A stretch of DNA of 64,000 nucleotides from a bacterium (GTDB lineage Bacteria; Patescibacteriota; Minisyncoccia; UBA6257; GWB1-50-10). The number at the start of each line of letters is the position of its first letter. The first letter of the stretch is position 1. The position numbers were made by a program, and so were the translations under genes. Positions 2,432 to 57,004 of the stretch are shown here, in pieces. The stretch spans positions 91,168 through 155,167 of the forward strand of contig JAJYXV010000015.1 of the NCBI GenBank assembly GCA_021801565.1, given 5' to 3'. The notes under the pieces are model-generated. The model saw only the letters and a list, made by a program, of their open reading frames with translations. It had not been told where the DNA came from and searched no databases.

Positions 2432-4921
2432 CTATTTTTTATAAACAATAAATCGCGATTGAGTAACCGATCCAGATGAGTCGGTTACTTTTATCTCAAA
2501 AAGGTTTTGTGGGTCAAGTGTGGTATTGAAATAGTATTGATATTTATACACTACACCCTCTATATCAAAACCATTTATAAGACGATCGTTTATAAAAAGT
2601 TCAATTCTTTTCAGTTCTTTATTTTTTCCCGCCCGTATATTCGCTTGTATAATAAACGGAGAGGAAAGAAAATCGCCATTTTTTGGATAAGTAGTATTTA
2701 TTGTTGTTTTTTCATTCGTTTCGACCCCCGCACCACTTACGTTAGTGTTTTCGCGATCTGAAGAAAACGAAACATCTCCAGAAATTGATTGATTCCATAA
2801 ATAAGAATCGGGTATATGTGTATGTGCCCAATTTAATACCCCAGTTTCCCAGTTTTTAAACTGCGGATCATTCGCGGGATTTTCTGGTCTCGGGCCAAGG
2901 GGATTTTCTTTATCAATGTAATACAAAATTGAATGTATTTGTGGATATGTCTTTCCTTGGATTATTGGTTTCCATATATATTCCCCGTTTATCATTGGTT
3001 TTGGTGTATAAGGAATTGGGTCTGGTTTTGTAAATGTTTCTGGTTCGTATTTTTTTATAACATCTCGTAAAAACAAGTTCCAAATAGGAACCGCAGCGAG
3101 AATACTACTTCCTTGTCGTATCATGGGTGTGTTGTCGTTATTTCCGGCCCAAGCACCCACAACGAGAAATGGAGTATACCCAACAACCCACGCGTCTCTG
3201 TGGTCACCAGATGTTCCTGTTTTCAATGCCACATCGTACCCATCATAAACAGTGAGAGGAAGAGAACTTCCAAAAATTGGTGCACGGAGCTCTGGTGTTG
3301 AAAGAATTTGTGTAACAAGCCGTATTGACTGTGTGTCGTCAAACACCCTTTTTGTATTATCTGTATATTCTTCTAATACATTTCCCTCCGTGTCTTCTAT
3401 TTTTAAAATAAACACCTGTTCATGTCTCACCCCCTCTTGTGAAAGAGTTCCATATGTGTTTACAAGATCAATCAGTTTTACTTCTCCTCCGCCAAGAACC
3501 AAGGATAGACCGTATCTCCACGTTTCTTTAAGTGTGCTGATACCGAAATCATGAAGTGTTTTTAACGAATCATCCATTCCGGCGAGATATAATAATTTTA
3601 CAGCGGGAATGTTAAATGATTGTGCAAGGGCATTTTCAAGCGTGACGGGTCCGTGTTCTTTTTCATCGAAGTTTTGCGGACGATAACTTGTTTCTGGGGA
3701 ATCTCTTAAGTCAAATTCAGTATTCACATCAAAAAGGACTGTTTTGGGAGAATATCCCTTGTGAAATGCGGTGAGATATACAAATGGTTTTAGTGCGGAT
3801 CCTGGTTGTCTTAATCCTTGCGCCGCAACATTAAAATTTCCATCATTCTTTGTATCAAAGTAATCCCTAGAGCCCACCAAGGCCAAAACTTGACCTGTTT
3901 TTGGGTCTTCTGCAACCAACGCCGCATTGTTAGCGCCATACATTTTTTCGTTGTTTTTAGAGCCTTCTAGAACCGCTTTTTCGGCAGTTTCTTGCATATT
4001 CCAATCAAGCGTAGTGATAACCTTAAGACCACCGTTATTCACCAACTCCTCCCCATATTTATTTATGAGATAGTCCTTTACCATAAGAGAGAAATGAGGC
4101 GCTTTTATTGACCCCAAAGAGGGGGGAGAAAAAACTATTTCTTTCTTCTTTATTTTTTCTACGCTCTGTTTTTCTATAAAACCAAGTTCAGCCATTCTAT
4201 CTAAAACGTAATTTTTTCTATCAATTAAATCTTTTGTGTGAGATCCCCATGGAGAAAAATAACTCGGAGCTTTTAACATGCTTGCAAGTACAGCGGCCTC
4301 CTCTGGAGAAACGTTTCGAATTGATTTTCCAAAATATGTTTGACTTGCCGCCTCAACCCCATACGCGTTTGATCCATATGGTATTTGATTGAGGTAAAAA
4401 TAAAAAATTTGATCTTTCGAATATTTTGATTCGAGTTCTAGTGCGAGAACAAGTTCTTTTATTTTACGCGCGATTGTTTTTTCCGAGCTTAAAAAAATAT
4501 TTTTTGCCAATTGCTGAGTGATGGTTGATCCACCTTGCGCCACCTTTCCTTCCCGTAAATTTGTGTAGAGAGCCCTTAGAATTGCTTTCCAATCAAAGGC
4601 TGGTTGATTGTAAAAATCCGCATCTTCAGCTGCGAGCGTCGCCTTTTTTACCACATCGGGAATTTCTTCAAATGGAATAACAGTTCTTTTCTCCTCCCCG
4701 TGTATTTCATAAAGGACCACCCCGCCGGTTTTATCGTAAATCTTGGTTGATTGATTCGCTCTTCGAACATTAAATTGCTCCGGAGAGGGAAGGGTTTGTA
4801 TGAGAATTGCAACATATAAAGAACCAACAACCAGAAGCCCAAAAGATCCAAATATAAAAATAGACCAAAATGTTTTGGCAAACGATTTGTTTTTTGTTCC
4901 TACACGCCTTTTTTTGATCAT
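2432..4921 (-). CDS. Class A penicillin-binding protein (bifunctional glycosyltransferase/transpeptidase) with an extra C-terminal extension of about 200 aa.
   Basis: N-terminal TM helix. Transglycosylase motifs (GGSTITQQLAKN, RKIKE). Transpeptidase SALKPF (SxxK), SGD and KTGT motifs. Confidence 0.85.
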   Translation of the reverse strand: MIKKRRVGTKNKSFAKTFWSIFIFGSFGLLVVGSLYVAILIQTLPSPEQFNVRRANQSTKIYDKTGGVVLYEIHGEEKRTVIPFEEIPDVVKKATLAAEDADFYNQPAFDWKAILRALYTNLREGKVAQGGSTITQQLAKNIFLSSEKTIARKIKELVLALELESKYSKDQIFYFYLNQIPYGSNAYGVEAASQTYFGKSIRNVSPEEAAVLASMLKAPSYFSPWGSHTKDLIDRKNYVLDRMAELGFIEKQSVEKIKKKEIVFSPPSLGSIKAPHFSLMVKDYLINKYGEELVNNGGLKVITTLDWNMQETAEKAVLEGSKNNEKMYGANNAALVAEDPKTGQVLALVGSRDYFDTKNDGNFNVAAQGLRQPGSALKPFVYLTAFHKGYSPKTVLFDVNTEFDLRDSPETSYRPQNFDEKEHGPVTLENALAQSFNIPAVKLLYLAGMDDSLKTLHDFGISTLKETWRYGLSLVLGGGEVKLIDLVNTYGTLSQEGVRHEQVFILKIEDTEGNVLEEYTDNTKRVFDDTQSIRLVTQILSTPELRAPIFGSSLPLTVYDGYDVALKTGTSGDHRDAWVVGYTPFLVVGAWAGNNDNTPMIRQGSSILAAVPIWNLFLRDVIKKYEPETFTKPDPIPYTPKPMINGEYIWKPIIQGKTYPQIHSILYYIDKENPLGPRPENPANDPQFKNWETGVLNWAHTHIPDSYLWNQSISGDVSFSSDRENTNVSGAGVETNEKTTINTTYPKNGDFLSSPFIIQANIRAGKNKELKRIELFINDRLINGFDIEGVVYKYQYYFNTTLDPQNLFEIKVTDSSGSVTQSRFIVYKK

Positions 4922-5155: not shown

Positions 5156-5335
5156 CTTCTTCAATAATTTTTAATTTATTCACGCTTAAACGACCTTTTA
5201 AAGCGTGTATAACGCATGCGGTAGGGATAATATAGCGACTATAAACAGAAGTCAACCCCGCTAGAAACAACTTATTTGTCTGGTTTTTTCACTTAAAAAC
5301 ATATTAATGATTTATGGGTGGGATTTCTGACGTGG

Positions 5336-10029: not shown

Positions 10030-11031
10030 TTAAACAAATCCGTGTTTTTCGAATGGGATATGAAGATGATCATATGCCGCCTTTGTGGCAACGCGTCCCA
10101 ATGAGGTTCTTTCCAAAAATCCAAGATTCATAAGAAATGGTTCATACACATCCTCGATTGTTCCCGTTTCTTCAGAAAGTGCTGCGGCCAGCGCCTTTAC
10201 TCCTACCGGGCCACCCCCAAATCTCTTTATGATGGTTTTTAAAAGTTCTCTATCAGTGTGTTCGAGTCCAAGTGAATCCACTTCAAGTAGTGATAATGTT
10301 TTTTCTACAACATATTCATCAATTGATCCGTTATGATATATTTCCGCATAATCACGCGCTCGCTTTAAAAGCCTATTTGCGGTTCGTGGAGTAAATCGCG
10401 ATGCGCGCGCAAGCATTGCAATTGCACCCGGGGTAATTTCTGTTTTTAAAATATATGCAGATTGTTTTATTATTTTTTCAATATCTTCGGTTCGATAATA
10501 ATCAAGTTTAATTGTTGCTCCAAAACGGGAACGAAGTGGGTTCGAAAGCACATTCACTTTTGTAGTTGCCGCGATTACTGTGAATGGTGGAAGATCGAGC
10601 GAAAACGTTCGTGCCGACGGTCCCTTTCCGACGATAAAGTGGAGTTTTCTACTTTCAAGCGCCGGATATAAAATTTCTTCAACGAGCTTGTTGATACGAT
10701 GTGCTTCGTCAATAAATAAAATTTCATGCGGTTCAATATTACTTAAAATTGCCGCTACATCTCCAGCTTTTTCAAGCGCAGGTCCCGTGGTTGATCTCAC
10801 CTGAACGCCCATTTCTTTTCCTATGAGGTATGCAAGAGTTGTTTTTCCCAAGCCCGCTTGTCCATAAAAAAGAAGATGATCACAACTTTCGCCCCTCTTT
10901 TTTGCCGCATCAATAATAAGACGCAAATTTGTTTTTGCCTTTTCTTGACCCACATATTCTGTCCATGTTCTCGGGCGCAACGCGAGATCAAATCCAGCGT
11001 CATCATTTTTTTCTTCCTTTTTTATTGCCAT
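10030..11031 (-). CDS. ruvB: Holliday junction branch-migration helicase RuvB.
   Basis: Walker A GQAGLGKTTLA. RuvB sensor and arginine-finger regions. Winged-helix C-terminus. The ATG at 11031 lies one codon inside the ORF-track GTG. Confidence 0.9.
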   Translation of the reverse strand: MAIKKEEKNDDAGFDLALRPRTWTEYVGQEKAKTNLRLIIDAAKKRGESCDHLLFYGQAGLGKTTLAYLIGKEMGVQVRSTTGPALEKAGDVAAILSNIEPHEILFIDEAHRINKLVEEILYPALESRKLHFIVGKGPSARTFSLDLPPFTVIAATTKVNVLSNPLRSRFGATIKLDYYRTEDIEKIIKQSAYILKTEITPGAIAMLARASRFTPRTANRLLKRARDYAEIYHNGSIDEYVVEKTLSLLEVDSLGLEHTDRELLKTIIKRFGGGPVGVKALAAALSEETGTIEDVYEPFLMNLGFLERTSLGRVATKAAYDHLHIPFEKHGFV

Positions 11032-11100
11032 CACAATTCATTTTACCGCACATGGGAGAAAATGTGTATTTTTTCTTCTAAAAGCGCGCTTTTTAATGAG

Positions 11101-11239
11101 GTTGACCCAGTAGTGAAAATTCGATATGTCGTTCCACGACACAGTTATATACTATTAAATTAAGACGGTTTGTGTTGGAAACGAATAGCAAAATTGAGCA
11201 CTTTCTCCCTATATAACCGAGTTTCTACTACCGGTTGAC
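11101..11239. repeat. Copy 1 of a perfect 139-bp inverted repeat. Its outer end is about 70 bp upstream of the ruvB start.
   Basis: The reverse complement is identical base-for-base to 15039-15177. Contains the palindrome TGTCG-TGGAA-CGACA (11127-11141). Both ends carry GTCAAC. Confidence 0.9.
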
Positions 11240-11293
11240 ATTTTTTTTGATATACGTATGATAGTCCCTAGTAAAGAGAAAGGAGATAGACAA

Positions 11294-11347
11294 ATGCTGT
11301 TTTTTATTAAAAACGCTGCTTTTCCGCCGCCTTTGGGTGGCTATTGA
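11294..11347 (+). CDS. Candidate 17-codon leader peptide MLFFIKNAAFPPPLGGY with a PPP stall-prone motif.
   Basis: Strong SD AAGGAG (11280-11285) 8 nt upstream of the ATG. The TGA stop (11345-11347) lies inside the -35 hexamer of the downstream promoter. Confidence 0.3.
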   Translation: MLFFIKNAAFPPPLGGY

Positions 11348-11372
11348 CAAATAAATATAAGTATGCTACAAT
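11344..11372 (+). promoter_or_regulatory. Near-consensus sigma70 promoter (TTGACA, 17 bp, TACAAT).
   Basis: TTGACA at 11344-11349, a 17-nt spacer, TACAAT at 11367-11372. The predicted transcription start is near 11379. Confidence 0.5.
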
Positions 11373-11378
11373 ACTAAC

Positions 11379-11556
11379 AGTATCCTGATAATAGACCTGT
11401 GGGTAAACGGATTTCTTCCCAGAAACTTTAGGACTATCTTGCTTTGGCTCGATAACTCCTCGGAAAAATCAGTCTTTTTCTGAAATATAATTTCGGAAAA
11501 TGTGTTTCACACGGCCTAACGGCTTTTTACCCACGGATCTATCATCAGGATTTTTT
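11379..11556 (+). ncRNA. Structured RNA of about 178 nt whose 5' and 3' ends form a closing helix of about 26 bp, followed by a U6 tract. 6S-RNA-like, or a cis-regulatory leader of the downstream transporter.
   Basis: 5' AUCCUGAUAAUAGACCUGUGGGUAAA pairs with 3' UUUUUACCCACGGAUCUAUCAUCAGGAU (two mismatches). Internal hairpins AGGACUAUC..GAUAACUCCU, GUGUUUCACAC and GCCUAACGGC. Ends UUUUUU, 21 nt before the next RBS. Confidence 0.45.
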
Positions 11557-11577
11557 AATAATTAAAGAGGAATACAA

Positions 11578-11853
11578 ATGGATGAGAAAACCATTTGGAG
11601 TATTTTGCTTATGTTTTGTTGGATTATTGTTTCTCTTGGTCAAATAAACCAAGGGATGAAGATTAAAAAAAACAAAAACATAGAAAATATTTCAATTTTC
11701 TTGCCAACAACAGTATTTATTGCACAGACAATTCTTTTTGTTAAAGGATTGTCTTATGGTGATTGGTCGCTAATTATTGGTGCTGTTGTGGTAAATATTG
11801 GTACTATGTTTAATGTTTTTAATTTTCTAAAAATTAAACCAATTCAGAAATAA
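11578..11853 (+). CDS. SemiSWEET-like (PQ-loop/MtN3 family) three-TM transporter, 91 aa, with GQ in place of the canonical PQ.
   Basis: Three predicted TM helices. SLGQ..KKNKNIENIS is aligned by eye to the SemiSWEET PQ..RDIS motif. Conserved Trp (GDWSL) and Asn (VVNIGTM) at the positions of the SemiSWEET binding-site W/N. Good RBS AAAGAGGA. Confidence 0.5.
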   Translation: MDEKTIWSILLMFCWIIVSLGQINQGMKIKKNKNIENISIFLPTTVFIAQTILFVKGLSYGDWSLIIGAVVVNIGTMFNVFNFLKIKPIQK

Positions 11854-11876
11854 GCGCCGCAGATTGCGGCGTTTTT
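11854..11876 (+). terminator. Rho-independent terminator after the transporter gene.
   Basis: GCGCCGCAGATTGCGGCG followed by TTTTT. Confidence 0.5.
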
Positions 11877-11916
11877 CTTTTCTCCCCAACCCCTAACCGT
11901 CTAACTATCTAACCGC

Positions 11917-13590
11917 CTATCCTTCCAGCCACTCAATCTTCCCCGCCAAACGTTCCACTTCAGCAATACTTGTTTTTCCTTTTAATACTTTTAAGAACCC
12001 ATCTTCCTGAAGCATCACCATTCCCTCTTTTTGTGCAACTTCTTTTAATTCGATTTCCGTTGGATTTTTATAAATTAATTCTTCTATTTTTTCTGAGATC
12101 GCAAAAAGTTCGAATATTGAAATGCGCCCCCTGTATCCAATTCCTGCGCAGGCCGGACATCCTTTTGGCCCGTAAATTGTGTACGTCTCATATTCTTTTT
12201 TATTCACGCGCGCTGGAAGTTTTTCTAAAAACTCCTTTATTTTTTCTTTTTGTCCGTCACTTGTTGTGACGGGTGTCTTACACTCGGGGCAAAGCACACG
12301 AACAAGACGTTGTGCAATGACGAGATTTAATGCCGGCCCAATAATTTGTGTTTTTGCGCCCAAGTCAATGAGGCGGGGGATTGCTCCTACCGCATCGTTT
12401 GTGTGGAGCGTTGAAAAGACCAGGTGTCCGGTAAGTGATGCATTCATCGCAATTTCAGCGGTTTCCTTGTCTCTAATTTCTCCCACAAGTACAATATCTG
12501 GATCTTGGCGCAAAATTGAACGAAGTCCGCTTGCAAACGTATAATTCGCATCGGCATCAACTTGTGTTTGTGAAATTCCTTCGAGGTGATATTCAATTGG
12601 GTCTTCAATGGTAATTATTTTTATTTCTGGGTCGGTAATATATTTTAAAAACGCATAGAGCGTGGTAGTTTTTCCGGATCCCGTCGGTCCCGTGTTTAAA
12701 ATAAGTCCGTTTGGTCTGTCGATCTCTTTTTTTATAATTTCGAGATCATCTGGCCGCCATCCCAACTCTTCAAGGTTTGCTTTTAAGGAGAGTGGATCAA
12801 GGAGACGAAGCACAAGTGTTTCGCCGTATTCGGAGGGGATGACGGAGGTTCTTACCTCGATATCGCGGTCACTTAGTTGTATGGTAAAGCGTCCGTCTTG
12901 CGCTTCATCATGGATATTTAATTTTAAATTTGAGAGAAGTTTTATGCGCGTGACAACTGATTTGTACACAAGGGGAGTGAATTCGGAAAAAATAGTGTGG
13001 AGAAGTCCATCAACACGGAGACGAAGCGAATTTTCGTTTTCACCCGGCTCGAGATGAATATCAGATGTTTTCATCGCCATTGCCCCCGCAAGAATAATTT
13101 CGAGAATCTGGGAGGTATACGGACTCTTGAAATTTTTTAATGCAGAAGTAAAATCGGCGAGGCTTTTTATTTGTGTTTGAAACTCTTTAATATGTGCCTC
13201 ATTAATTTCTACACTTCCAGAAATTTCTTTTGTGTCGGCTACGTATTGATAATACGACCACCCATGACGCAGTGATAACATTGAACAAATTGCAATATGA
13301 AGTTCGAATTTATTTTTTAAAGCGTCAATAAGAGTTTTCGATTCGGGGAGCGTCGGATTAAATGCGGCAACAAAAAGTTTTTTTTGGCTGATTTGGAAGG
13401 GGGCTACGAGCGCCTTTTTTGCATCTTCTTCTTTTATTATTTCAAGTGCCCTTAACTCAATTGGGGTTTTTGAACTAATAAGATCAAGATAAGGAAGACC
13501 AAGTTGTGTTGCCCTCCGTTTTGCATCATTTTCTTCTGCAGTTTTTCTTTGTTTTTGAAGTTGTTCCTGAAGTTTTTTTGCAAAAAGCAT
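11917..13590 (-). CDS. Type II secretion / type IV pilus assembly ATPase (GspE/PilB family).
   Basis: Walker A LNTGPTGSGKTT. Asp box and His box. C-terminal tetracysteine CPEC..CPAC. N1 and N2 domains present. Confidence 0.85.
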   Translation of the reverse strand: MLFAKKLQEQLQKQRKTAEENDAKRRATQLGLPYLDLISSKTPIELRALEIIKEEDAKKALVAPFQISQKKLFVAAFNPTLPESKTLIDALKNKFELHIAICSMLSLRHGWSYYQYVADTKEISGSVEINEAHIKEFQTQIKSLADFTSALKNFKSPYTSQILEIILAGAMAMKTSDIHLEPGENENSLRLRVDGLLHTIFSEFTPLVYKSVVTRIKLLSNLKLNIHDEAQDGRFTIQLSDRDIEVRTSVIPSEYGETLVLRLLDPLSLKANLEELGWRPDDLEIIKKEIDRPNGLILNTGPTGSGKTTTLYAFLKYITDPEIKIITIEDPIEYHLEGISQTQVDADANYTFASGLRSILRQDPDIVLVGEIRDKETAEIAMNASLTGHLVFSTLHTNDAVGAIPRLIDLGAKTQIIGPALNLVIAQRLVRVLCPECKTPVTTSDGQKEKIKEFLEKLPARVNKKEYETYTIYGPKGCPACAGIGYRGRISIFELFAISEKIEELIYKNPTEIELKEVAQKEGMVMLQEDGFLKVLKGKTSIAEVERLAGKIEWLEG

Positions 13591-13787
13591 TATTTCTATT
13601 TTACATCTTTTCTTTTTTTACGCATAGATAATCATTGATTGATCACAAGCGATGGGGGTTGTTGCTATTATGATCAAAAAATGAGATTTAGATTCCTAAA
13701 TATTCAAAACAAATGCCCGGTTTTTGCAAGAATTCATATTGAAAAATCCAGGATGTGTATTGTGGAATTTTGTTTTATAATAAACCC

Positions 13788-14600
13788 ATGCTTTTTTTCT
13801 TGTATGGGCCGGATTCGTATCGACGCAAAGAAAAACTAGAACACCTTATTTCTCCATATAAGGAAAAATATAAGAACGCCGACATACTTGAAATCGATAT
13901 GAGTGAGGACGAAAACGAGTGGGAGAGGGTGAGGGATTTTTTGGTTCAACCATCTATGTTTGTTGATTCAAAAGTCGCAGTGGTGCGGCACGCAACAATA
14001 ATTGAAGAACCGGGGTGGATGAACACGCTTCGGTCTCAATTGAAAACAACGAAGGTGTTTACATTCCTTTCTGAAGAAGAAGCACCGAAGAAAAACTTTG
14101 ACTTTCTTTTCTCATCGGCAGTACACAAAGTGGAATTTCAGGAACTAGACGGAAAAACACTTGAAAATTTCATAAAAAACAAATCAGAGAAATTACACAT
14201 CTCTCTTGAGGACGACGCATTACATCTTTTTGTCTTATTCATCCTTTCGTTTGAGAATAATCGCTCGTGGCGCGTTGTTCGTGAGCTTGAAAAATTATCT
14301 CTATTAGGACTTCCGTTGCCGATACAAAAAAAAGATCTTTTGAATTATATCAAAATACACACACATGAAGAATTGTTTTCACTTGCCCGAGATATTGTCT
14401 ACAACAAAGATATTCGTATACGCCTCTTTTCGCTTGAAAAAGTACTTTTACAAAACGAAGCGGTGGCACATTTTTTTAATCTTATATCAGCCCTTGTGAA
14501 AGGGCCTAAAGCGCTTTTATTCGCCGACTATGATGTTCTTGTAAAGAGCGGAAAAATTGGATATGAAGAGGCACTTTTTGAGTTTGCAATGAAAAAATAA
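13788..14600 (+). CDS. holA: DNA polymerase III delta subunit (HolA).
   Basis: MLFFLYGPDSYRRKEKLEHL N-terminus typical of HolA. About 270 aa. The ORF-track start at 13755 is probably an upstream extension. Confidence 0.75.
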   Translation: MLFFLYGPDSYRRKEKLEHLISPYKEKYKNADILEIDMSEDENEWERVRDFLVQPSMFVDSKVAVVRHATIIEEPGWMNTLRSQLKTTKVFTFLSEEEAPKKNFDFLFSSAVHKVEFQELDGKTLENFIKNKSEKLHISLEDDALHLFVLFILSFENNRSWRVVRELEKLSLLGLPLPIQKKDLLNYIKIHTHEELFSLARDIVYNKDIRIRLFSLEKVLLQNEAVAHFFNLISALVKGPKALLFADYDVLVKSGKIGYEEALFEFAMKK

Positions 14601-14747
14601 TCTCGCATCTTTTTGCGCGTATGGGTTTTGGTGGTAAATAGAATATGTTGAAATAGTACGTAAAATGATTTTTTTCCCATTATGAGAGCATAACAAAAAA
14701 GCCCACAAAAATTCTTTCGTGGACCTGATTTGTGAAAGGGTGCGGGG

Positions 14748-15005
14748 TTATTTTTTAATCTTTTTTGAAAGTCGCGATTTTATTCTATTCACCTTCCCGC
14801 GTTTTATAAGGCCTCTTTTTCCCATTTTATCAACTGTTTTATAAATTGTGGGAAGATATGATTCTGCCTCTTTTATTTGGTTTGTTGCAATGAGTTTTTT
14901 AAACTTTTTCACCGCCACCCTTATATTTGCTTTTTGTTCAATATTTCTCTTTCTGCGGCGAATATTTTGTCTCAGTGCTTTTTGTGCAGATGTTGTTTTT
15001 GGCAT
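14748..15005 (-). CDS. rpsT: 30S ribosomal protein bS20.
   Basis: MPKTTSAQKALRQNIRRRKRN.. is characteristic of bS20. 85 aa. Confidence 0.9.
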   Translation of the reverse strand: MPKTTSAQKALRQNIRRRKRNIEQKANIRVAVKKFKKLIATNQIKEAESYLPTIYKTVDKMGKRGLIKRGKVNRIKSRLSKKIKK

Positions 15006-15038
15006 AACGGTAGAATACTAAATCAAAGATTAGAAAAC

Positions 15039-15177
15039 GTCAACCGGTAGTAGAAACTCGGTTATATAGGGAGAAAGTGCTCAATTTTGCTATTCGTTTC
15101 CAACACAAACCGTCTTAATTTAATAGTATATAACTGTGTCGTGGAACGACATATCGAATTTTCACTACTGGGTCAAC
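15039..15177. repeat. Copy 2 of the perfect 139-bp inverted repeat. Its outer end is about 95 bp upstream of ruvA and its inner end is 33 bp upstream of the rpsT start.
   Basis: Identical to the reverse complement of 11101-11239. The palindrome TGTCGTGGAACGACA lies at 15137-15151. Confidence 0.9.
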
Positions 15178-15271
15178 TCAGTAATAATTCACTAACGGGC
15201 GAGCCGCTATCAAGTCAATCCAACATAAAAAAGATGCGGTGCGGTATTTTCGCTGGTATAATAGAGGTAAT

Positions 15272-15862
15272 ATGTTGTATACATTAAATGGACTCGTCAC
15301 TGAAAAGAAACAGAATTTTTTTGTTCTTGAGGTGGGGGGAATCGGATTTAAAATATTTGCGAATATTCATACACTTGAAAAAATTTCTATAGGGAACACA
15401 CCCATTCATTGTTTTTGTTTTCTCCATTCATCTGAGAATCAATTTGATGTGTTTGGCTTTCTTGACGAACCATCACTATCTTTCTTTGAATTATTAAATA
15501 CCGTTCCCGGGGTCGGGCCACGCACCGCACTAAATGTTCTCGATGTGGATTCCGTACAAAATATTACCGCCGCAATTCTTGAAAAAAGAATCGATCTTTT
15601 AACGCGCGCGTCTGGAATCGGGAAGAAAACAGCAGAAAGAATTGTGGTAGAACTTCAAAACAAGCTTCACGTACACGCCTCTTCATCACTTACAGAATCA
15701 ATGGATATAAATATTGAACTGGAGGAAGCGCTTACAAGTCTTGGATATCAACAAAAAGAGGCAAAACAAGCAATACAGACAGCACAAAAACTTTTTCGTG
15801 GAAACGAAACATTCGAAGATCGATTACGAAGCATTTTGAAGGGTATTGGTAAATCAAAATAA
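15272..15862 (+). CDS. ruvA: Holliday junction DNA helicase subunit RuvA.
   Basis: MLYTLNGLV.. OB-fold domain I. HhH motifs (PGVGPRTALNVL, ASGIGKKTAERIV). Domain III. Extended -10 TGgTATAAT and RBS AGAGG just upstream. Confidence 0.9.
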   Translation: MLYTLNGLVTEKKQNFFVLEVGGIGFKIFANIHTLEKISIGNTPIHCFCFLHSSENQFDVFGFLDEPSLSFFELLNTVPGVGPRTALNVLDVDSVQNITAAILEKRIDLLTRASGIGKKTAERIVVELQNKLHVHASSSLTESMDINIELEEALTSLGYQQKEAKQAIQTAQKLFRGNETFEDRLRSILKGIGKSK

Positions 15863-32106: not shown

Positions 32107-32817
32107 TTATTTCCTCATTCTTTGTGCTTTTTCTTTCCAATCGTTTATTTCTTCGGCGGAGAATGTACTATCTTCGTTTTTTGTGCCAAATATCTTTATT
32201 TTTCTATTCATTGTATCTGTTGCGACACCATTCCAAATAGTGCCTGACGTATATACCTCCCACACCCCCCCATTCCAGTCAGTGAGTTCAAATTTTCCTT
32301 CGTCTCTCTTTGTGATTTTTCCTGAAATGAGACCCCTTTCTGGATGAGACCAGATATCTTTTTTGTCGTATATAAAATCTTCATAAAAAGGGATGTTATT
32401 TGATGCAAGTTCATGAACTGTTTCTCCTACCCCTAAAAAATGTCCGATTCCTCCCAATGCAACACTCAGTAATATTGCACCCCCGATTATAAAATGCGGC
32501 ATATACCGATAACCTGTTTTTGTATTTTTGAATTCAATGTATATAACAAGAGAGAGAATAATAAGGAGAATAATCCAAAAATAAGGGAGACTTATTATTA
32601 AAAATTCAAAAAATGTTTTTCCCACCATTTCATACATTTCCCAGTCATGATCGGTAAGCGAAAAAAATATGACTCCCGATGCGGCACCGCCGATAAGCAC
32701 GGTACTTCCAAGAAGAACCCATAATCCGATATGTTCAACAACAAAAAGCCATTTTGGTTTTTTTGTTATCTCCCCGCTTTTTATTTTTTCGATGATATTT
32801 TTATCTATATCGTTCAT
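32107..32817 (-). CDS. Membrane protein, possible anti-sigma factor, translationally coupled to the upstream ECF sigma gene.
   Basis: Its start overlaps the sigma-gene stop by 4 nt. Multiple TM helices. Confidence 0.35.
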   Translation of the reverse strand: MNDIDKNIIEKIKSGEITKKPKWLFVVEHIGLWVLLGSTVLIGGAASGVIFFSLTDHDWEMYEMVGKTFFEFLIISLPYFWIILLIILSLVIYIEFKNTKTGYRYMPHFIIGGAILLSVALGGIGHFLGVGETVHELASNNIPFYEDFIYDKKDIWSHPERGLISGKITKRDEGKFELTDWNGGVWEVYTSGTIWNGVATDTMNRKIKIFGTKNEDSTFSAEEINDWKEKAQRMRK

Positions 32818-33434
32818 AGTTCTGTGTGTATGCTTTTTTCTACGACTATATTTTTAAATTTTTCTTTTGCTCGTTTAATAAGCACAGAAATCGTTCCAAT
32901 GGGCTTTTGGAGAATATCAGATATTTCTTCATAATCCCTTTCTTCTAAAAATCTTAATACTAGTACATCGCGATATTTTTTGTCGAGCGCGCCAAGTGCT
33001 TCCATGATATGTTCGTGTATTATTTTTTTATCAAGTTCTTTTTCTATATCGGTATCTGCAGCAATCTTTTCTGCGAGTGTTCCCTCTTCGTTTTCTTCTT
33101 GGTATGTAAATGACGAAAATGGAATTGTTTTTACTTTTCGTAGATAACTTATGGTTTCATTGTGCGCAATGCGGTATATCCATGAAGAAAATTTTAAAGA
33201 AGTATCGAAATCATTTAAATTTTTATATGCCTTGATAAATGTTTCTTGGAGTATTTCTTCCATGTCTTCATTGGAAAGAGAGCTAATTCTTTTTATATAT
33301 CGCGCGAGCTTTTGCTTATATCGATCAATAAGAAGTGCATACACATCGTCGCGTTTCAACGTTTCGAGAACAAGATCCTCATCCGCCTTTCCTTTATATA
33401 TTTCCGCATTCACTATTTTATGTAATACGTCCAT
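32814..33434 (-). CDS. ECF-type RNA polymerase sigma factor.
   Basis: Region 2 LQETFIKAYKNLNDFD..FSSWIYRIAHNETISYLRK. Region 4 ISDILQKPIGTISVLIKRAKEKF. Confidence 0.8.
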   Translation of the reverse strand: MDVLHKIVNAEIYKGKADEDLVLETLKRDDVYALLIDRYKQKLARYIKRISSLSNEDMEEILQETFIKAYKNLNDFDTSLKFSSWIYRIAHNETISYLRKVKTIPFSSFTYQEENEEGTLAEKIAADTDIEKELDKKIIHEHIMEALGALDKKYRDVLVLRFLEERDYEEISDILQKPIGTISVLIKRAKEKFKNIVVEKSIHTEL

Positions 33435-37062: not shown

Positions 37063-37716
37063 ATGTTTTTAGAGTCACCAATAACCGATGGAAAAAAATT
37101 AGATATAAACGAATTACGAGGGATCATAACAGAAATAGATAAAGAAGAAAGAGAAAATGCGGGAGAAAAAAAATTTTCAGCCGAAATGACAAAACGCGCG
37201 TTCGAGGCATTATGTGATGCATTTAAATCAGTGGGAGCGGAGGAGTTTGGGAATATTCAAGAGTTGTACAATAAAATTCCAAATAAGACGCTTGTGAGGC
37301 GTGAGGACCCAAAGAAACTATTCGATCTTATTGCAGATAAAAAAGATATTAACCTCAATTTTGATCAAGAAATTGTTGGAGAAAAAGGTGATGCATATGC
37401 AAATTGTGCAGAGTATATGGGTGGCAAGGGTTTGGTGAATGCATTTAATGAAGGGTGGAGCCATTTAGGTGGTGTTACTACGGTTATGGGTTTTGGGAAT
37501 GGTGATGATTATACAGTAGAAATTCCAGAAGATTCCATGGTAAAAATTGGAGATTTAGACAGACAATGCGTAAGAATCGTGAAGGGGACAATACATGACA
37601 AAAACGTAAAATTTGTCGTGATACGCGCCCCACAAAAATTTATCGACCCAGTTTCGACGGATTTAGAGAAAAAGAAATTTGTGTTCCGCGGGTATCTGTT
37701 TAACAACATAAACTAG
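37063..37716 (+). CDS. Hypothetical protein.
   Basis: 217-aa ORF with no recognisable motif. Confidence 0.4.
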   Translation: MFLESPITDGKKLDINELRGIITEIDKEERENAGEKKFSAEMTKRAFEALCDAFKSVGAEEFGNIQELYNKIPNKTLVRREDPKKLFDLIADKKDINLNFDQEIVGEKGDAYANCAEYMGGKGLVNAFNEGWSHLGGVTTVMGFGNGDDYTVEIPEDSMVKIGDLDRQCVRIVKGTIHDKNVKFVVIRAPQKFIDPVSTDLEKKKFVFRGYLFNNIN

Positions 37717-48796: not shown

Positions 48797-48832
48797 AAAA
48801 AATCCCTCCGATATTCGTCGGAGGGATTTTTT
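48797..48832. terminator. Rho-independent terminator after hup.
   Basis: AAAAATCCCTCCG-ATATTCG-TCGGAGGGATTTTTT. Confidence 0.6.
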
Positions 48833-49718
48833 AGAGTAACTTCCTCACTACATTACTCATATCAATAAAGATTTGATAAATATTTTTTACTTTAGTAAAA
48901 GATTCTTTTACCAAGTCTTTTATTGATAATTGGGGGTTTTTTTCCACCTCATCTGTTACTGTTGAGGTTGCGGTACTTGTTGCCTCTTCTGTTGCGTTCA
49001 TTAGTATTTTCTCATCTTTGCTTTCTGGTAATTGCAAAATTTTTGTTGTAGAGAAAAGGAGAACCGCTTTGTCGTTTAATTCTTGAGCGTCTTTTAGCAA
49101 CACCTCGGTTTTTGAGAACATTTTTTCTAATTCTGCTGTTTTTATTCTCGCTTTTTTCAATTTTTCAATATCAACGCGTATTTTCTCTGCTCTTTTTTTT
49201 GTTATATCAAGCGCTTGTTTCTGCTGTTCAATGAGAAAATAATCATTGATTTCATCCGCTGTGGGAGTATATTCTTTCTCGCGCCACTCTTTAAATGATT
49301 CTGCTTTTGTTTTTATTTCTGGGAGTGTGAGAGAGGCTTCATTTTCTTTTATAAAATTTTTCTCTGAATCATAATATTCGAGCGCATCGTCAAGATTTTT
49401 CATCATTCTGTTTTTCCACTCGATTGTTGATGTTCCTACTTTTTTAGAATCGATGTCAAAGAGTTTTATTTTTAAATCTTTTGTTTCTGCAATGGAAAAG
49501 TCGATAACTTTTTTGAATGTCTCAATACGAAATGCAATGTCGTTTGGATTTTCTTCATCCTTTGCATTAATAAGCGTGGTGACGCTTTCTTTTACGTCTT
49601 CAAGTGCTTTTTTTGTCGTATCAGACTGAGCATGTGCCGGCGTGTAGAAGTATATTCCGGACAAAAGCGAAAAAAGTATAAAAAGTGAAATGGTACGCAT
49701 ATGTTTAAAAAATGACAC
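48831..49718 (-). CDS. Secreted coiled-coil protein (signal peptide ..TPAHA).
   Basis: Signal peptide followed by a K/E-rich coiled-coil sequence. Its start overlaps the upstream gene. Confidence 0.4.
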   Translation of the reverse strand: MSFFKHMRTISLFILFSLLSGIYFYTPAHAQSDTTKKALEDVKESVTTLINAKDEENPNDIAFRIETFKKVIDFSIAETKDLKIKLFDIDSKKVGTSTIEWKNRMMKNLDDALEYYDSEKNFIKENEASLTLPEIKTKAESFKEWREKEYTPTADEINDYFLIEQQKQALDITKKRAEKIRVDIEKLKKARIKTAELEKMFSKTEVLLKDAQELNDKAVLLFSTTKILQLPESKDEKILMNATEEATSTATSTVTDEVEKNPQLSIKDLVKESFTKVKNIYQIFIDMSNVVRKLL

Positions 49719-51210: not shown

Positions 51211-51819
51211 ATGAGTTTTATTGATCAACAAAAGAAGCTTATTCGACTCACTGGGATTTCCATTGTGGTTATTATCGTTGCATTGGGAATTATCTATATT
51301 ACTTCAATTCGTTCTTCACAAGATATACCGGAGCGTTTTGTTGAGGCAAGAAAAAATGCAGCATCTGTGAGTGAAGATATAGTTCGTCTTACAAGTGATA
51401 CGAATGAAAAAATTGCACAAATTAATGTGCTTGAAATAAAAGGGAAGGCAGAAGAAGCGCTTTTACTTATTCAAAGCGCTCGGGCATCGAATGAGGCAGC
51501 GTATGGAAAAGCATTTGATCTCTCTCAAAATTTAAAAACACTTGCCGAGTCGCTTGCTGATATTCATTCCCCGAGGGAACAACAAATTGCATATGAAGCG
51601 GTCGCGGTAGAACTTTCTTTGGTAAGCGAATTTATCTCTTACACGCAAGCACTGAACACTTTTTTGAGTAATCTTGCTTCACTCATTTCAAACAACACAC
51701 TTCAGAATCAAAATATTGTTCGTTCGAATATAAGCACAGTGAACGAGAAAACTTCGCTTATTAACAATCTTAACACCCAATTCATTGAGAAAATGAAGAC
51801 GTTTGATTCATCATTTTAG
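51211..51819 (+). CDS. Hypothetical membrane-anchored coiled-coil protein.
   Basis: N-terminal TM helix followed by a long helical, Ala/Glu/Leu-rich sequence. Confidence 0.4.
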   Translation: MSFIDQQKKLIRLTGISIVVIIVALGIIYITSIRSSQDIPERFVEARKNAASVSEDIVRLTSDTNEKIAQINVLEIKGKAEEALLLIQSARASNEAAYGKAFDLSQNLKTLAESLADIHSPREQQIAYEAVAVELSLVSEFISYTQALNTFLSNLASLISNNTLQNQNIVRSNISTVNEKTSLINNLNTQFIEKMKTFDSSF

Positions 51820-52655: not shown

Positions 52656-53735
52656 CTAGGAAGCAAAAAATCTACTGAATGGATGTTTTTTCATTTCCGT
52701 ATGTTTATAGATAAATTTTATATCGTTGTAGAGTACCTTGAGTCCTAATGGAAACGAGCCAAGACAGTTATGTCCCAGAGGTTCTGTGTCTATTTCAATA
52801 TCGTGGCGGATTGCCCGTATTTTTTTATTTATTGCGATGACATTTTCTGGACAAAATATATGATCGTATTTTGCCTGAACAATTCTTGTGTGTTTTGGAA
52901 GGTTTTTAAATTTTTTTTCATAAGCCCCAGGAGAAAGTATTTTTAAAATTTCACGAAGATCTTTTTCTTCTATTTTTCCTCTTATCTTTTCAGCTATCCT
53001 TGTTGTGCCGACACCCTCCATAAGTGCTTTATGAAAGTCATCTGCGAGGAGATGAAAAATTCCGAAGTCGAAAAGTGATGGATTCCCCATGGCGGCAACG
53101 GATGAATAACACGTTCCCATACTAAAGGAGAATATTCCCACCTCTTCAAATCCAAGTTCGTTTTTTAGAATCCATGCAAGTTGTTGTATATCGAAGATAT
53201 TTTTTTGGAAACGCGAGACCATACTTCCAATATCTGGTCCCACGCTTTCATAATCAATTGATTCTTTAATTCCCCACGAAGTCTTGCGATTTGAGGGGAT
53301 GAATAAAAACGTGCTTACTGGTAAGAGTCGTCTTCTTATAAATGAAATAAGCGCTTCGTATTCTTTAGGAATGCCATTCCAATGCATCACTGTGATAAGT
53401 GCCACTTTTTTTCCTGGTCCACTTTTCTGTATTGAATATTTACACGACACCTTCTCTTTCTCGTTTATCACGGATGGGAAAATCATATATTTTCTTTTCC
53501 AATGTATTTCCGTTTTTTCGAGTGGTGCAGCGATGTGTCTTTGAAGATTGGAAAACCAATGATGCGAATATCTTTTCAAAAAATCGAGCGAATCTTCACC
53601 ATCTCTTTTTCTTTTCAGGTGATGTGTTCCAAGACAAAAATCAGGAACGTGCGAATGAAGTTTTTGATGAGATCTGCTCTCTCTTAGTTCTATATTCTTT
53701 ATCCGTTTTGGATTGTCTTTGAATATAAAAATCAT
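52656..53735 (-). CDS. Hypothetical protein, possibly an alpha/beta-hydrolase-like enzyme.
   Basis: 359 aa from the ATG at 53735. The ORF-track start at 53783 overlaps tRNA-Pro. No decisive motif. Confidence 0.4.
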   Translation of the reverse strand: MIFIFKDNPKRIKNIELRESRSHQKLHSHVPDFCLGTHHLKRKRDGEDSLDFLKRYSHHWFSNLQRHIAAPLEKTEIHWKRKYMIFPSVINEKEKVSCKYSIQKSGPGKKVALITVMHWNGIPKEYEALISFIRRRLLPVSTFLFIPSNRKTSWGIKESIDYESVGPDIGSMVSRFQKNIFDIQQLAWILKNELGFEEVGIFSFSMGTCYSSVAAMGNPSLFDFGIFHLLADDFHKALMEGVGTTRIAEKIRGKIEEKDLREILKILSPGAYEKKFKNLPKHTRIVQAKYDHIFCPENVIAINKKIRAIRHDIEIDTEPLGHNCLGSFPLGLKVLYNDIKFIYKHTEMKKHPFSRFFAS

Positions 53736-53740
53736 TATGG

Positions 53741-53814
53741 TGGTCGGAGAGCCGGGAATCGAACCCGGACTATATGCTCCCAAAGCATACGTACTACCAC
53801 TATACTACTCTCCG
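53741..53814 (-). tRNA. tRNA-Pro (anticodon TGG), CCA encoded.
   Basis: Minus strand CGGAGAG..TATGC-TTTGGGA-GCATA-TAGTC-CGGGTTCGATTCCCGG-CTCTCCG-A-CCA. Confidence 0.85.
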
Positions 53815-56149: not shown

Positions 56150-57004
56150 ATGAAAAAGATGATTGCTATCTTTGTAGTTTTATTTCTCCAGTCTTTGAAC
56201 TTGTATGCTCAAAATTACAGTTCCAAAAAACTCTCAGATACCTCAGTTGTTATTCTGTCCGAATCTGAAAAAACTGATACCCTTTATGAAAAAAACGGGA
56301 TAGTAAAAATTGTACAAACGACTACAAAAATTCCAGTTGCTACAATAATGTTCCCAGAGAATCTTGATTACTACCACGCCTACTCTCTTTTTTATGACTA
56401 CAAAAGAATGGGAAAATCAGATTCTTCGAGAATATCCAATTGGGACACGGTAGTATATCATCCTGAGTACGGATATTTTATGAAAACGGAAAAATCTTCA
56501 TCTAAATACGCATATTTAGATGAAAAAGAAATGAGGGTTTTTGTTAAAGAATTTTCTCAAGAAAAAACTCTCTTGTCGCCAGGATTGTGTTTATTTGCTC
56601 CGACCTTCGTTTTATTTCTATTTTTTGGTTCTTTTTTTTCAAAGGCGTATAAAAAAAGAGAAGAACTTAGATTCGGAGACGGAAGAAATATAAAATTCTG
56701 GACTTATGTATGTTCAACCTTCTCCCTTTTATTAGTTGTTGTTGTTATTTCTGGTTTGATTCTTGGAGCAAAAACAGATGTTTTTTTTGGGATCGTTGTC
56801 TCCGCTGTTATGCTTTTTTTCTTATCGTTTGATTACGAGGATAGAACATTTACACTTCTTCTTGTTCTATTTTGCGCTTGTGGTGCGGGGATTTTTGCTG
56901 GTATTCCAAAATCCATAGGGCTATTCTTTATAACCATCTTTGTGATGGTTATGGCAAACATTGTGGGTAGAATAATACCCACCCCAAAATTTCTTTTGAA
57001 ATAA
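56150..57004 (+). CDS. Hypothetical membrane protein with an N-terminal signal peptide.
   Basis: Signal peptide and several C-terminal TM helices. Confidence 0.4.
   Translation: MKKMIAIFVVLFLQSLNLYAQNYSSKKLSDTSVVILSESEKTDTLYEKNGIVKIVQTTTKIPVATIMFPENLDYYHAYSLFYDYKRMGKSDSSRISNWDTVVYHPEYGYFMKTEKSSSKYAYLDEKEMRVFVKEFSQEKTLLSPGLCLFAPTFVLFLFFGSFFSKAYKKREELRFGDGRNIKFWTYVCSTFSLLLVVVVISGLILGAKTDVFFGIVVSAVMLFFLSFDYEDRTFTLLLVLFCACGAGIFAGIPKSIGLFFITIFVMVMANIVGRIIPTPKFLLK

Follow-up and report, generated by a model that had tools for sequence, protein, structure and literature searches.

A perfect inverted repeat upstream of ruvB and ruvA in a patescibacterial genome is probably a recently duplicated miniature transposable element at promoter -35 hexamers

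The 64-kb stretch of bacterial DNA analysed here (64,000 nucleotides of contig JAJYXV010000015.1, hereafter the window) carries a perfect 139-bp inverted repeat whose two arms lie upstream of ruvB and ruvA and bracket a 3.8-kb segment between them. Our analysis indicates with good confidence that the two arms are copies of a recently duplicated miniature inverted-repeat transposable element (MITE), a non-autonomous DNA transposon, that has inserted at the -35 hexamers of resident promoters. This assignment follows from the combination of terminal inverted repeats (TIRs), a target-site duplication (TSD) of fixed length, a small non-coding body, and filled and empty sites at different loci. The family is a new one of a known kind, and the relation between its target site and the promoters it occupies makes it moderately interesting. 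The initial annotation of this DNA had proposed a phase-invertible segment or a duplicated promoter/operator module shared by ruvA and ruvB, and had named a MITE only as the outcome that would speak against regulation; with family members found at other loci and in other organisms, the MITE alternative is the one that we now favour.

The repeat itself is well defined. Direct reading of both strands and a script agree that 11101-11239, read on the opposite strand, reproduces 15039-15177 exactly over 139 nt, with the first mismatch beyond the perfect tract at 11240 (A) versus 15038 (G). A repeat search of the window placed the arms at 11101-11244 and 15034-15177 (144 nt at 99%), nhmmer stretched the similarity to 11094-11246 versus 15183-15032, and a 56-nt piece of the repeat matched the window exactly twice and none of 100 shuffled sequences, which bears out the perfect inverted identity first reported from the letters alone. 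The weaker likeness of the outer flanks noted at that time (TTAATGAG versus TTACTGAG) is also real, though each flank is ancestral at its own locus. The distances given then were all right, at 69 bp from copy 1 to the ruvB ATG (11031), 94 bp from copy 2 to the ruvA ATG (15272) and 33 bp from copy 2 to the rpsT ATG (15005), and both copies indeed carry the GTTGAC/GTCAAC termini and the palindrome TGTCGTGGAACGACA (positions in Table 1). Exact matches to the window's rpsT and SemiSWEET proteins are encoded on 18 contigs each from NCBI metagenome-assembled genomes (MAGs), ENA MEGAHIT assemblies and Logan assemblies. The same sequence and junctions recur in 9 contigs from at least 7 samples across the NCBI, ENA and Logan sets, and long k141 contigs cross both arms in the arrangement of the window. 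Short-k assemblies stop at both arms, so that the inner segment emerges as separate contigs (3,799 and 3,859 bp). Since these contigs are 100% identical to the window over the repeat arms and the 40-bp flanks tested, they carry no information on divergence.

The anatomy of the repeated unit is that of a small transposable element. Each arm is a 127-bp unit with imperfect TIRs of about 19 bp (CCGGTAGTGAAAATTCAAT-type) and a 6-bp direct repeat, GTTGAC, on either side. To place this unit in a wider context, loci centred on RuvB were drawn from species-representative genomes and Joint Genome Institute (JGI) metagenomes, and RuvA- and RuvC-centred loci were compared as well (handles beginning with L). 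Members of the family measure 124-129 bp without their TSDs, and no gene was called inside the unit in any assembly. The two TIRs match at 17 of 19 positions in L191, 16 of 19 in L123, about 20 of 24 in L109 and about 14 of 19 in the window, with a left/right asymmetry (GTGAAAA versus GTAGAAA) common to all members. Pairing of the TIRs folds the whole unit into a long hairpin, with a predicted RNA free energy of -32.8 kcal/mol (z = -2.9) for the plus strand and -32.0 kcal/mol (z = -1.9) for the other.

Comparison with relatives revealed filled and empty sites of the kind expected of a mobile element. At L191, where RuvB is 91% identical, an orthologous copy lies upstream of ruvB (115/140 = 82% identical) with the same palindrome, clean TIRs (CCGGTAGTGAAAATTCAAT / CCGGTAGTAGAAATTCAAT) and GTCAAC on both sides. 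At L192, whose DNA is 85% identical to that of L191, the same site is empty and holds a single GTCAAC (...AAAGAAAT GTCAAC CCCAATAAAATCC...). The closest relative, L109 (RuvB 92%), has no element upstream of ruvB, and its promoter for the neighbouring non-coding RNA (ncRNA) lies only about 70 bp from that gene. L109 instead carries, just downstream of ruvC, 2.1 tandem 135-bp units that are mutually 100% identical and share a TSD; against the unit of the window they reach 57% overall, with shared ends (GGTTGACCCCGTGAGTGAAAGTTCAATATG ... ATTGAACTTCTACTACGGGGTTGAC). The subterminal hairpin reads TGCCAC-TTC-GTGGCA in L109 and TGTCGT-TCC-ACGACA in the window, so that three of its six pairs are changed on both sides, and these compensatory changes indicate that the hairpin rather than its sequence is conserved. 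A more distant member of 124 bp was found at an unrelated locus, L123, where RuvB is only 54% identical; its TIRs are CCGGTAGTGAGAATTCGAA / TTCGAATTTCTACTACCGG, and it is bordered on both sides by ATGGAT, an unambiguous 6-bp TSD of unrelated sequence. The spacer between rpsT and ruvA is free of copy 2 in L191, L192, L107, L101 and L104 and holds a single (G)TTGAC -35 in all five, and neither copy 2 nor an inverted-repeat pair occurs in any of the relatives examined. The insertions are thus polymorphic at three places: upstream of ruvB in the window and L191 and not in L192 or L109, in the rpsT/ruvA spacer in the window only, and downstream of ruvC in L109 only. The recurrence of ruv genes beside the element, including ruvC in L109, is partly a sampling effect because all fetched loci were ruv-centred.

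These comparisons also allow the two copies to be ordered in time. Copy 1 and the L191 copy are 82% identical, the level of the flanking genes (79-84%), and the ruvB-side copy is therefore older than the divergence of these lineages. Copy 2 is missing from the relatives, yet it is 100% identical to copy 1, which identifies it as a recent copy of copy 1; the recent duplication suspected from the perfect identity is in this way upheld, and homogenisation of the copies by gene conversion is possible. The identical tract comprises exactly the element and both TSDs, and the outer flanks compare with element-free sequence in relatives (L192 TTTTATTGGG|GTTGAC; L101 GATTACT|GTTGAC). A tract that ends at the TSDs between ancestral flanks fits transposition better than a larger segmental duplication.

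We propose the following history, of which the transposition mechanism, the mobilisation in trans and the target preference are inferred. Copy 1 would be an old insertion into the divergent spacer between ruvB and the ncRNA, shared by descent with L191, and copy 2 a recent insertion into the divergent rpsT/ruvA spacer 3.8 kb away, presumably mobilised by a transposase acting in trans. The 6-bp target would in each case be the -35 region (G)TTGAC, that of a promoter we call P1 for copy 1 and that of the rpsT promoter for copy 2, and duplication of the target would restore the -35 at its original spacing from the -10. An intact -35 after insertion would explain how the element is tolerated in very short intergenic regions; sequences further upstream of the rpsT promoter and P1 are shifted by 133 bp. 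The element would also keep a fixed orientation relative to its non-palindromic target, and since P1 and the rpsT promoter face each other, a fixed target orientation leaves the two copies inverted. On this account ruvB and ruvA would merely be the divergent partners of P1 and the rpsT promoter. The earlier observation that the repeat has the same orientation relative to ruvA and ruvB therefore stands as an observation, and the significance attached to it does not: it would be a by-product of the orientation of GTTGAC -35 boxes in promoters that face away from these genes.

Promoters were assigned by a consensus scan and by alignment with relatives, and their arrangement agrees with this history. 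P1 is kept in L101 (TTGACA-16-TATTAT), L191 and L192, and the rpsT promoter, including its (G)TTGAC, is kept without the element in L104, L101, L107, L191 and L192. At its inner end each arm provides the -35 for a promoter directed into the bracketed segment, and the consensus scan found no shared outward promoter toward ruvA and ruvB. In every GTTGAC case the right end of the element (...CTACTACCGG) abuts what is predicted to be a functional -35 box.

Several observations weigh against a MITE. The TIRs of the window's own copies are degraded, the 64-kb window shows only two copies (at least two more stand in tandem in L109), and instances of the family total only five or six. The tandem in L109 is found where a contig ends, and part of it may be an assembly loop. 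When 2.2 Mb of compared loci were searched for paired TIRs, only these instances emerged, with the remainder at noise level (4+4 mismatches), and the same search, for TIR pairs up to 2.5 kb apart, revealed no autonomous insertion sequence (IS) with matching TIRs. No transposase is present among the genes listed at 4.7-25 kb of the window or among 20 large open reading frames (ORFs) at 25-63 kb. Viral contigs gave 0 matches to exact or degenerate patterns of the element, and JGI metagenomes gave 0 matches to a 28-mer of it.

Copying without transposition would give the same copy 2 structure. In such a scenario the 139-bp tract was copied locally from the ruvB spacer into the rpsT/ruvA spacer, by template switching or recombination at GTTGAC microhomology, and gene conversion then kept the copies identical; both boundaries of identity are GTTGAC, the inner ones were already present as -35 boxes at both loci, only 3.8 kb separates the two sites, and no transposase was found. 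Template switching, however, needs GTTGAC at both ends of the recipient site, and the relatives have only one. The TIR-bearing unit is moreover found at other loci and in a distant organism, where the 6-bp repeat is ATGGAT instead, and the filled and empty sites of L191 and L192 are as transposition predicts. We therefore consider local copying unlikely and retain a transposed MITE as the explanation of both arms.

The choice of target deserves separate consideration. GTTGAC serves as the TSD at three independent sites, namely P1, the rpsT promoter and the promoter downstream of ruvC, and again in the tandem re-insertion. The window contains only 14 GTTGAC sites, 4 of which are the TSDs themselves. 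Such repeated use of one hexamer in the same orientation cannot be explained by random insertion. Either the transposase prefers GTTGAC or only promoter-preserving insertions survive in these compact genomes, and the ATGGAT duplication in L123 means that any preference for GTTGAC is not absolute across the family. General enrichment of GGTTGAC as a promoter motif was considered and set aside (6 observed against 4.9 expected). A family that is truly specific for the -35 hexamer GTTGAC in fixed orientation, a "promoter-safe" strategy in which each insertion regenerates a working -35, is a tentative proposal to which we give somewhat less than an even chance, with selection for promoter-preserving survivors as the alternative. 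Were it correct, promoter-safe insertion would allow mobile DNA to survive in patescibacterial intergenic regions, which are extremely compact, and the element would seed recombination substrates such as the 139-bp inverted pair around rpsT, holA and pilB.

The possibility that the repeats exist to flip the enclosed ncRNA-SemiSWEET-pilB-holA-rpsT segment, and so make it phase-variable, is very unlikely. Perfect inverted identity over 139 bp suffices for RecA-dependent recombination, and some assemblies do break at the arms, a behaviour that repeat length relative to k-mer size explains. All 9 contigs that resolve at least one junction show only the ruvB-repeat-small ORF and rpsT-repeat-ruvA arrangements, the Pfam-annotated neighbours include no recombinase, and the repeat pair is not in relatives. 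Because the arms contain the -35 boxes and the segment contains the -10 boxes, either orientation would pair each -10 with an identical -35, the expression state would not change, and both isomers would be equivalent in promoter architecture. The phase-invertible segment suggested at the outset is thus not supported, and RecA-mediated inversion of the 3.8-kb segment is possible as an incidental, promoter-neutral event.

Still less probable is a duplicated regulatory module in which the palindrome TGTCGTGGAACGACA acts as an operator, for example an SOS-like one, that co-regulates ruvB and ruvA after their separation. The appeal of this idea is that ruvA and ruvB are preceded by one and the same sequence, oriented alike, and that ruvAB is SOS-regulated in E. 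coli. Both genes, however, keep conserved promoter elements of their own outside the repeat, also in relatives without the element (a TCACTG(A/G)TATAAT-type box precedes ruvA in L101, L104, L107, L191 and L192), and the geometry differs between them, with palindrome centres about 90 bp (ruvB) and 115 bp (ruvA) upstream of the -10 boxes and the repeat 69 versus 94 bp from the start codons. A palindrome search of the window returned the two element copies and one chance-level match with 2 mismatches; no other copy occurs in the 64 kb, including upstream of ruvC, recG and polA. The three compensatory pair substitutions in the L109 palindrome point to a hairpin and not to a protein-specific operator, L192 and L109 have no element upstream of ruvB, and the palindrome is not upstream of ruvA in any relative examined. 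A shared LexA/SOS-type operator is thus not supported.

The separation of ruvA and ruvB also long predates the repeat. The order RNase(-) ruvA(-) | rpsT(+) holA(-) ... pilB(+) ruvB(+) tsaE polA is kept in L022-L025, L101, L110, L114, L191 and L192 (RuvB 60-92%), and long inverted repeats are missing from the relatives, including those at about 70% RuvB identity. The divergent split is, as judged from synteny, ancestral and independent of the repeat, which means that the repeat neither created the split nor compensates for it; an origin of the repeat by inversion of a ruvAB operon is rejected on the same grounds. Recent transposition of a MITE explains the repeat and removes an attractive but wrong reading of these Holliday-junction genes as co-regulated or phase-switched.

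Least probable of all are two copies of a small structured RNA gene, for which the long hairpin and its slightly better fold on the plus strand (owing to G-U pairs) could be cited, or an assembly artefact: the stem is the TIR pair, no promoter is placed to transcribe the whole unit and no Rfam family matches it at gathering thresholds or even at E <= 10, while the artefact that the initial annotation had allowed for is excluded by junctions that recur unchanged in many independent assemblies from NCBI, ENA and Logan. Two further candidates were discarded, namely a tRNA or tmRNA remnant serving as an attachment site, of which none lies close to the arms, and the small ORF beside copy 1 as a component of the repeat, since it sits outside.

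Additional inserts were seen around the same genes. L101 has an insert at the same site that shares only the GTTGAC duplicates, terminal CCNGT and a hairpin fold (z = -2.8) with the element, at 34-45% identity; it may be a diverged member or a different hairpin element, and we leave it unclassified. In the window (5243-5300, minus strand), a promoter downstream of ruvC (CGGGGTTGAC-16-TATATT) fronts a 51-aa acidic ORF and is preceded by TTTCTAGCGGGG, which resembles the right end of the element. The similarity, seen by eye only (Table 1), may reflect a decayed third copy at the site where L109 has its intact tandem units. The spacer upstream of this promoter is unrelated to the corresponding spacers of L109, L191 and L192.

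These spacers also hold an insert family with TIRs that is unrelated to the first. In L191 one such insert (4649-4815; CCCGCACCTTTTTG ... CAAAAAGGTGCGGG) separates the MITE from the ruvB promoter, L104 has a similar perfect 20-nt inverted pair between holA and rpsT (1482-1736; ATCCCGCACCTTTTCACAAT / ATTGTGAAAAGGTGCGGGAT), and GGTGCGGG stands at the corresponding holA-rpsT position of the window (about 14735-14759). Several MITE-like families may therefore inhabit these small genomes. The spacer between rpsT and ruvA stands out as a variation hotspot when close relatives are compared: it measures 100 bp in L107 (1581-1680), 104-124 bp in L192 and L191, and 266 bp in the window with the MITE, and it holds a 320-aa ORF with 177-bp internal repeats in L101 (8882-9844) and about 1 kb of repeats together with a GIY-YIG fragment in L104 (2060-2960).

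Table 1. Positions of the repeat arms, their component parts, the assigned promoters and the neighbouring genes within the window. Genes are from ORFs and the Pfam labels of identical public contigs.
Feature	Position	Strand	Remarks
Possible remnant of element right end (TTTCTAGCGGGGTTGAC)	5251..5275	-	By eye only; -35 region of promoter downstream of ruvC (TTGACT-16-TATATT)
polA		-	
tsaE		-	After polA
ruvB	10030-11031	-	Followed by copy 1
ruvB own promoter (TACACA-17-TAAAAT)	11040..11068	-	32 bp outside copy 1; kept in L101, L021, L109, L191, L192
Probable MITE, copy 1 with both TSDs	11101..11239	+	
Copy 1 left TSD, GTTGAC	11101-11106		
Copy 1 left TIR, CCAGTAGTGAAAATTCGAT	11107-11125		
Copy 1 subterminal hairpin (palindrome), TGTCGT-TCC-ACGACA	11127-11141		Followed by AT-rich core
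Copy 1 right TIR	11216-11233		
Copy 1 right TSD, GTTGAC	11234-11239		
P1 (TTGACA-16-TATGAT)	11235..11262	+	-35 is copy 1 right TSD, -10 outside repeat; ahead of small ORF/hairpin unit
Bracketed segment	11240..15038		3,799 bp: small ORF, ncRNA, SemiSWEET, pilB-like ATPase, holA, rpsT
Small ORF, then strong promoter and structured RNA			After copy 1
SemiSWEET	11578-11853	+	
Type II secretion system E (T2SS-E)/PilB-like ATPase	11917-13590	-	
holA		+	
rpsT	14748-15005	-	Followed by copy 2
rpsT promoter (TTGACG-17-TAGTAT)	15015..15043	-	-35 is copy 2 right-hand TSD, -10 outside repeat
Probable MITE, copy 2	15039..15177	-	Exact reverse complement of copy 1
Copy 2 TSD, rpsT side	15039-15044		rpsT promoter -35
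Copy 2 hairpin (palindrome)	15137-15151		
Copy 2 TSD, ruvA side	15172-15177		
ruvA own -10 (TATAAT)	15257..15262	+	9 nt before ATG, 80 bp outside copy 2
ruvA	15272-15862	+	
beta-CASP RNase		+	After ruvA

The DNA neighbouring copy 1 contains two further features of interest. At 11344-11556 (plus strand) a promoter close to consensus (TTGACA-17-TACAAT, its -10 preceded by TG) stands ahead of a structured RNA of about 175 nt, which is closed by a long stem, ATCCTGATAATAGACCTGTGGGTAAA ... TTTACCCACGGATCTATCATCAGGAT, and which all relatives examined retain in the interval from pilB to ruvB. For 7 sequences RNAalifold gave 41 pairs, 14 of them with compensatory changes, the RNA is 97% identical between L191 and L192 while its flanks are 85% identical, and no Rfam family matches it even at E <= 10; it is a candidate for a new ncRNA family. 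Between P1 and this RNA lies a 17-codon ORF (MLFFIKNAAFPPPLGGY; 11295-11348, plus strand) with an AAAGGAG Shine-Dalgarno sequence, whose TGA stop falls inside the -35 of the ncRNA promoter and which overlaps a conserved hairpin (GCTGTTTTTT..AAAAACGC). The ORF, which may encode a proline-rich leader peptide, is kept in L191 (MLFFTKNAGFLPPHKGY) and L192; its start is lost in L101 (ACG), and the entire block of about 105 bp is not present in L109.

The remainder of the window helps to place the repeat in its genome. The lineage belongs to the Patescibacteria, with neighbours labelled Paceibacterota, Jorgensenbacteria, Wolfebacteria and similar. The window apparently begins inside dnaA and continues with dnaN (1-2400; synteny with L191 and L192: PBP, dnaN, dnaA, rnpA), which would leave only about 11-15 kb between the repeat pair and the probable replication origin. 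The SemiSWEET gene that separates the ncRNA from pilB is confined to the lineage of the window and is not at that position in L101, L104, L107, L191 or L192; the same spacer holds small unannotated ORFs of 68 and 152 aa in L191 and L192, and L101, L104 and L107 have an ORF of 143-144 aa beside holA. Farther away, at 32107-33434 (minus strand), a sigma factor of extracytoplasmic function (ECF) type with Sigma70_r2/r4 is followed by a 236-aa protein without a Pfam match that is possibly an anti-sigma factor, and further ORFs of 200-375 aa without a Pfam match are located at 37063-37716, 48831-49718, 51211-51819, 52656-53783 and 56150-57004.

Taken as a whole, the coincidence of TSDs with -35 boxes shows how mobile DNA can be tolerated where intergenic space is almost nil, and the comparison reveals that the spacers around rpsT, ruvA, ruvB and ruvC turn over rapidly. 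Full-text literature searches of incomplete coverage found no description of MITEs in Patescibacteria, also called the candidate phyla radiation (CPR). On a practical level, the element explains recurring contig breaks in MAGs of this lineage and flags a possible hotspot of misassembly or inversion.

Among known systems, the element most resembles bacterial MITEs in being a non-coding unit of about 125-130 bp with TIRs of about 19 bp and a fixed 6-bp TSD, in combining an AT-rich variable core with conserved ends, and in showing presence/absence polymorphism and tandem or nested insertion. It departs from bacterial MITEs generally in its very few copies, in having no cognate IS or transposase identified, and in a strong bias toward GTTGAC (-35) within this lineage. 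The Correia elements (CREE) of Neisseria are intergenic units of about 100-150 bp that possess TIRs, can lend promoter hexamers from their ends and form hairpins in transcripts; they duplicate TA, occur in hundreds of copies and contain integration host factor (IHF) sites. Our element is likewise an intergenic, gene-adjacent unit with TIRs, an end-associated promoter hexamer and a hairpin, but it has a 6-bp TSD, draws its -35 from the duplicated target rather than from its own end, is apparently low in copy number and shares no sequence similarity with CREE. As in hybrid promoters derived from IS ends or TSDs, the element boundary forms a -35 placed 16-17 bp from a resident -10; here, unlike in those cases, the -35 pre-existed in element-free relatives and is merely regenerated, with no new promoter formed.

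Invertons such as fim, hin and the Bacteroides-type systems also have inverted repeats that bracket a segment, but their arms are about 10-30 bp rather than 139 bp, and the segment described here has no adjacent recombinase, no orientation-dependent promoter and one orientation seen. Repetitive extragenic palindromic (REP) sequences and REPINs, associated with REP-associated tyrosine transposases (RAYT), and the palindrome-associated transposable elements (PATEs) derived from IS200/IS605 are hairpin-forming intergenic repeats as well; GTAG/CTAC near the ends of the element recalls them, and TTGAC is reminiscent of IS200/IS605 target choice. REP/REPIN and PATE families do not have a TIR-plus-TSD architecture. 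No RAYT or TnpA was seen with the element, and it is the clean 6-bp TSD of unrelated sequence in L123 that sets the family apart from those groups and favours an element of the DDE type.

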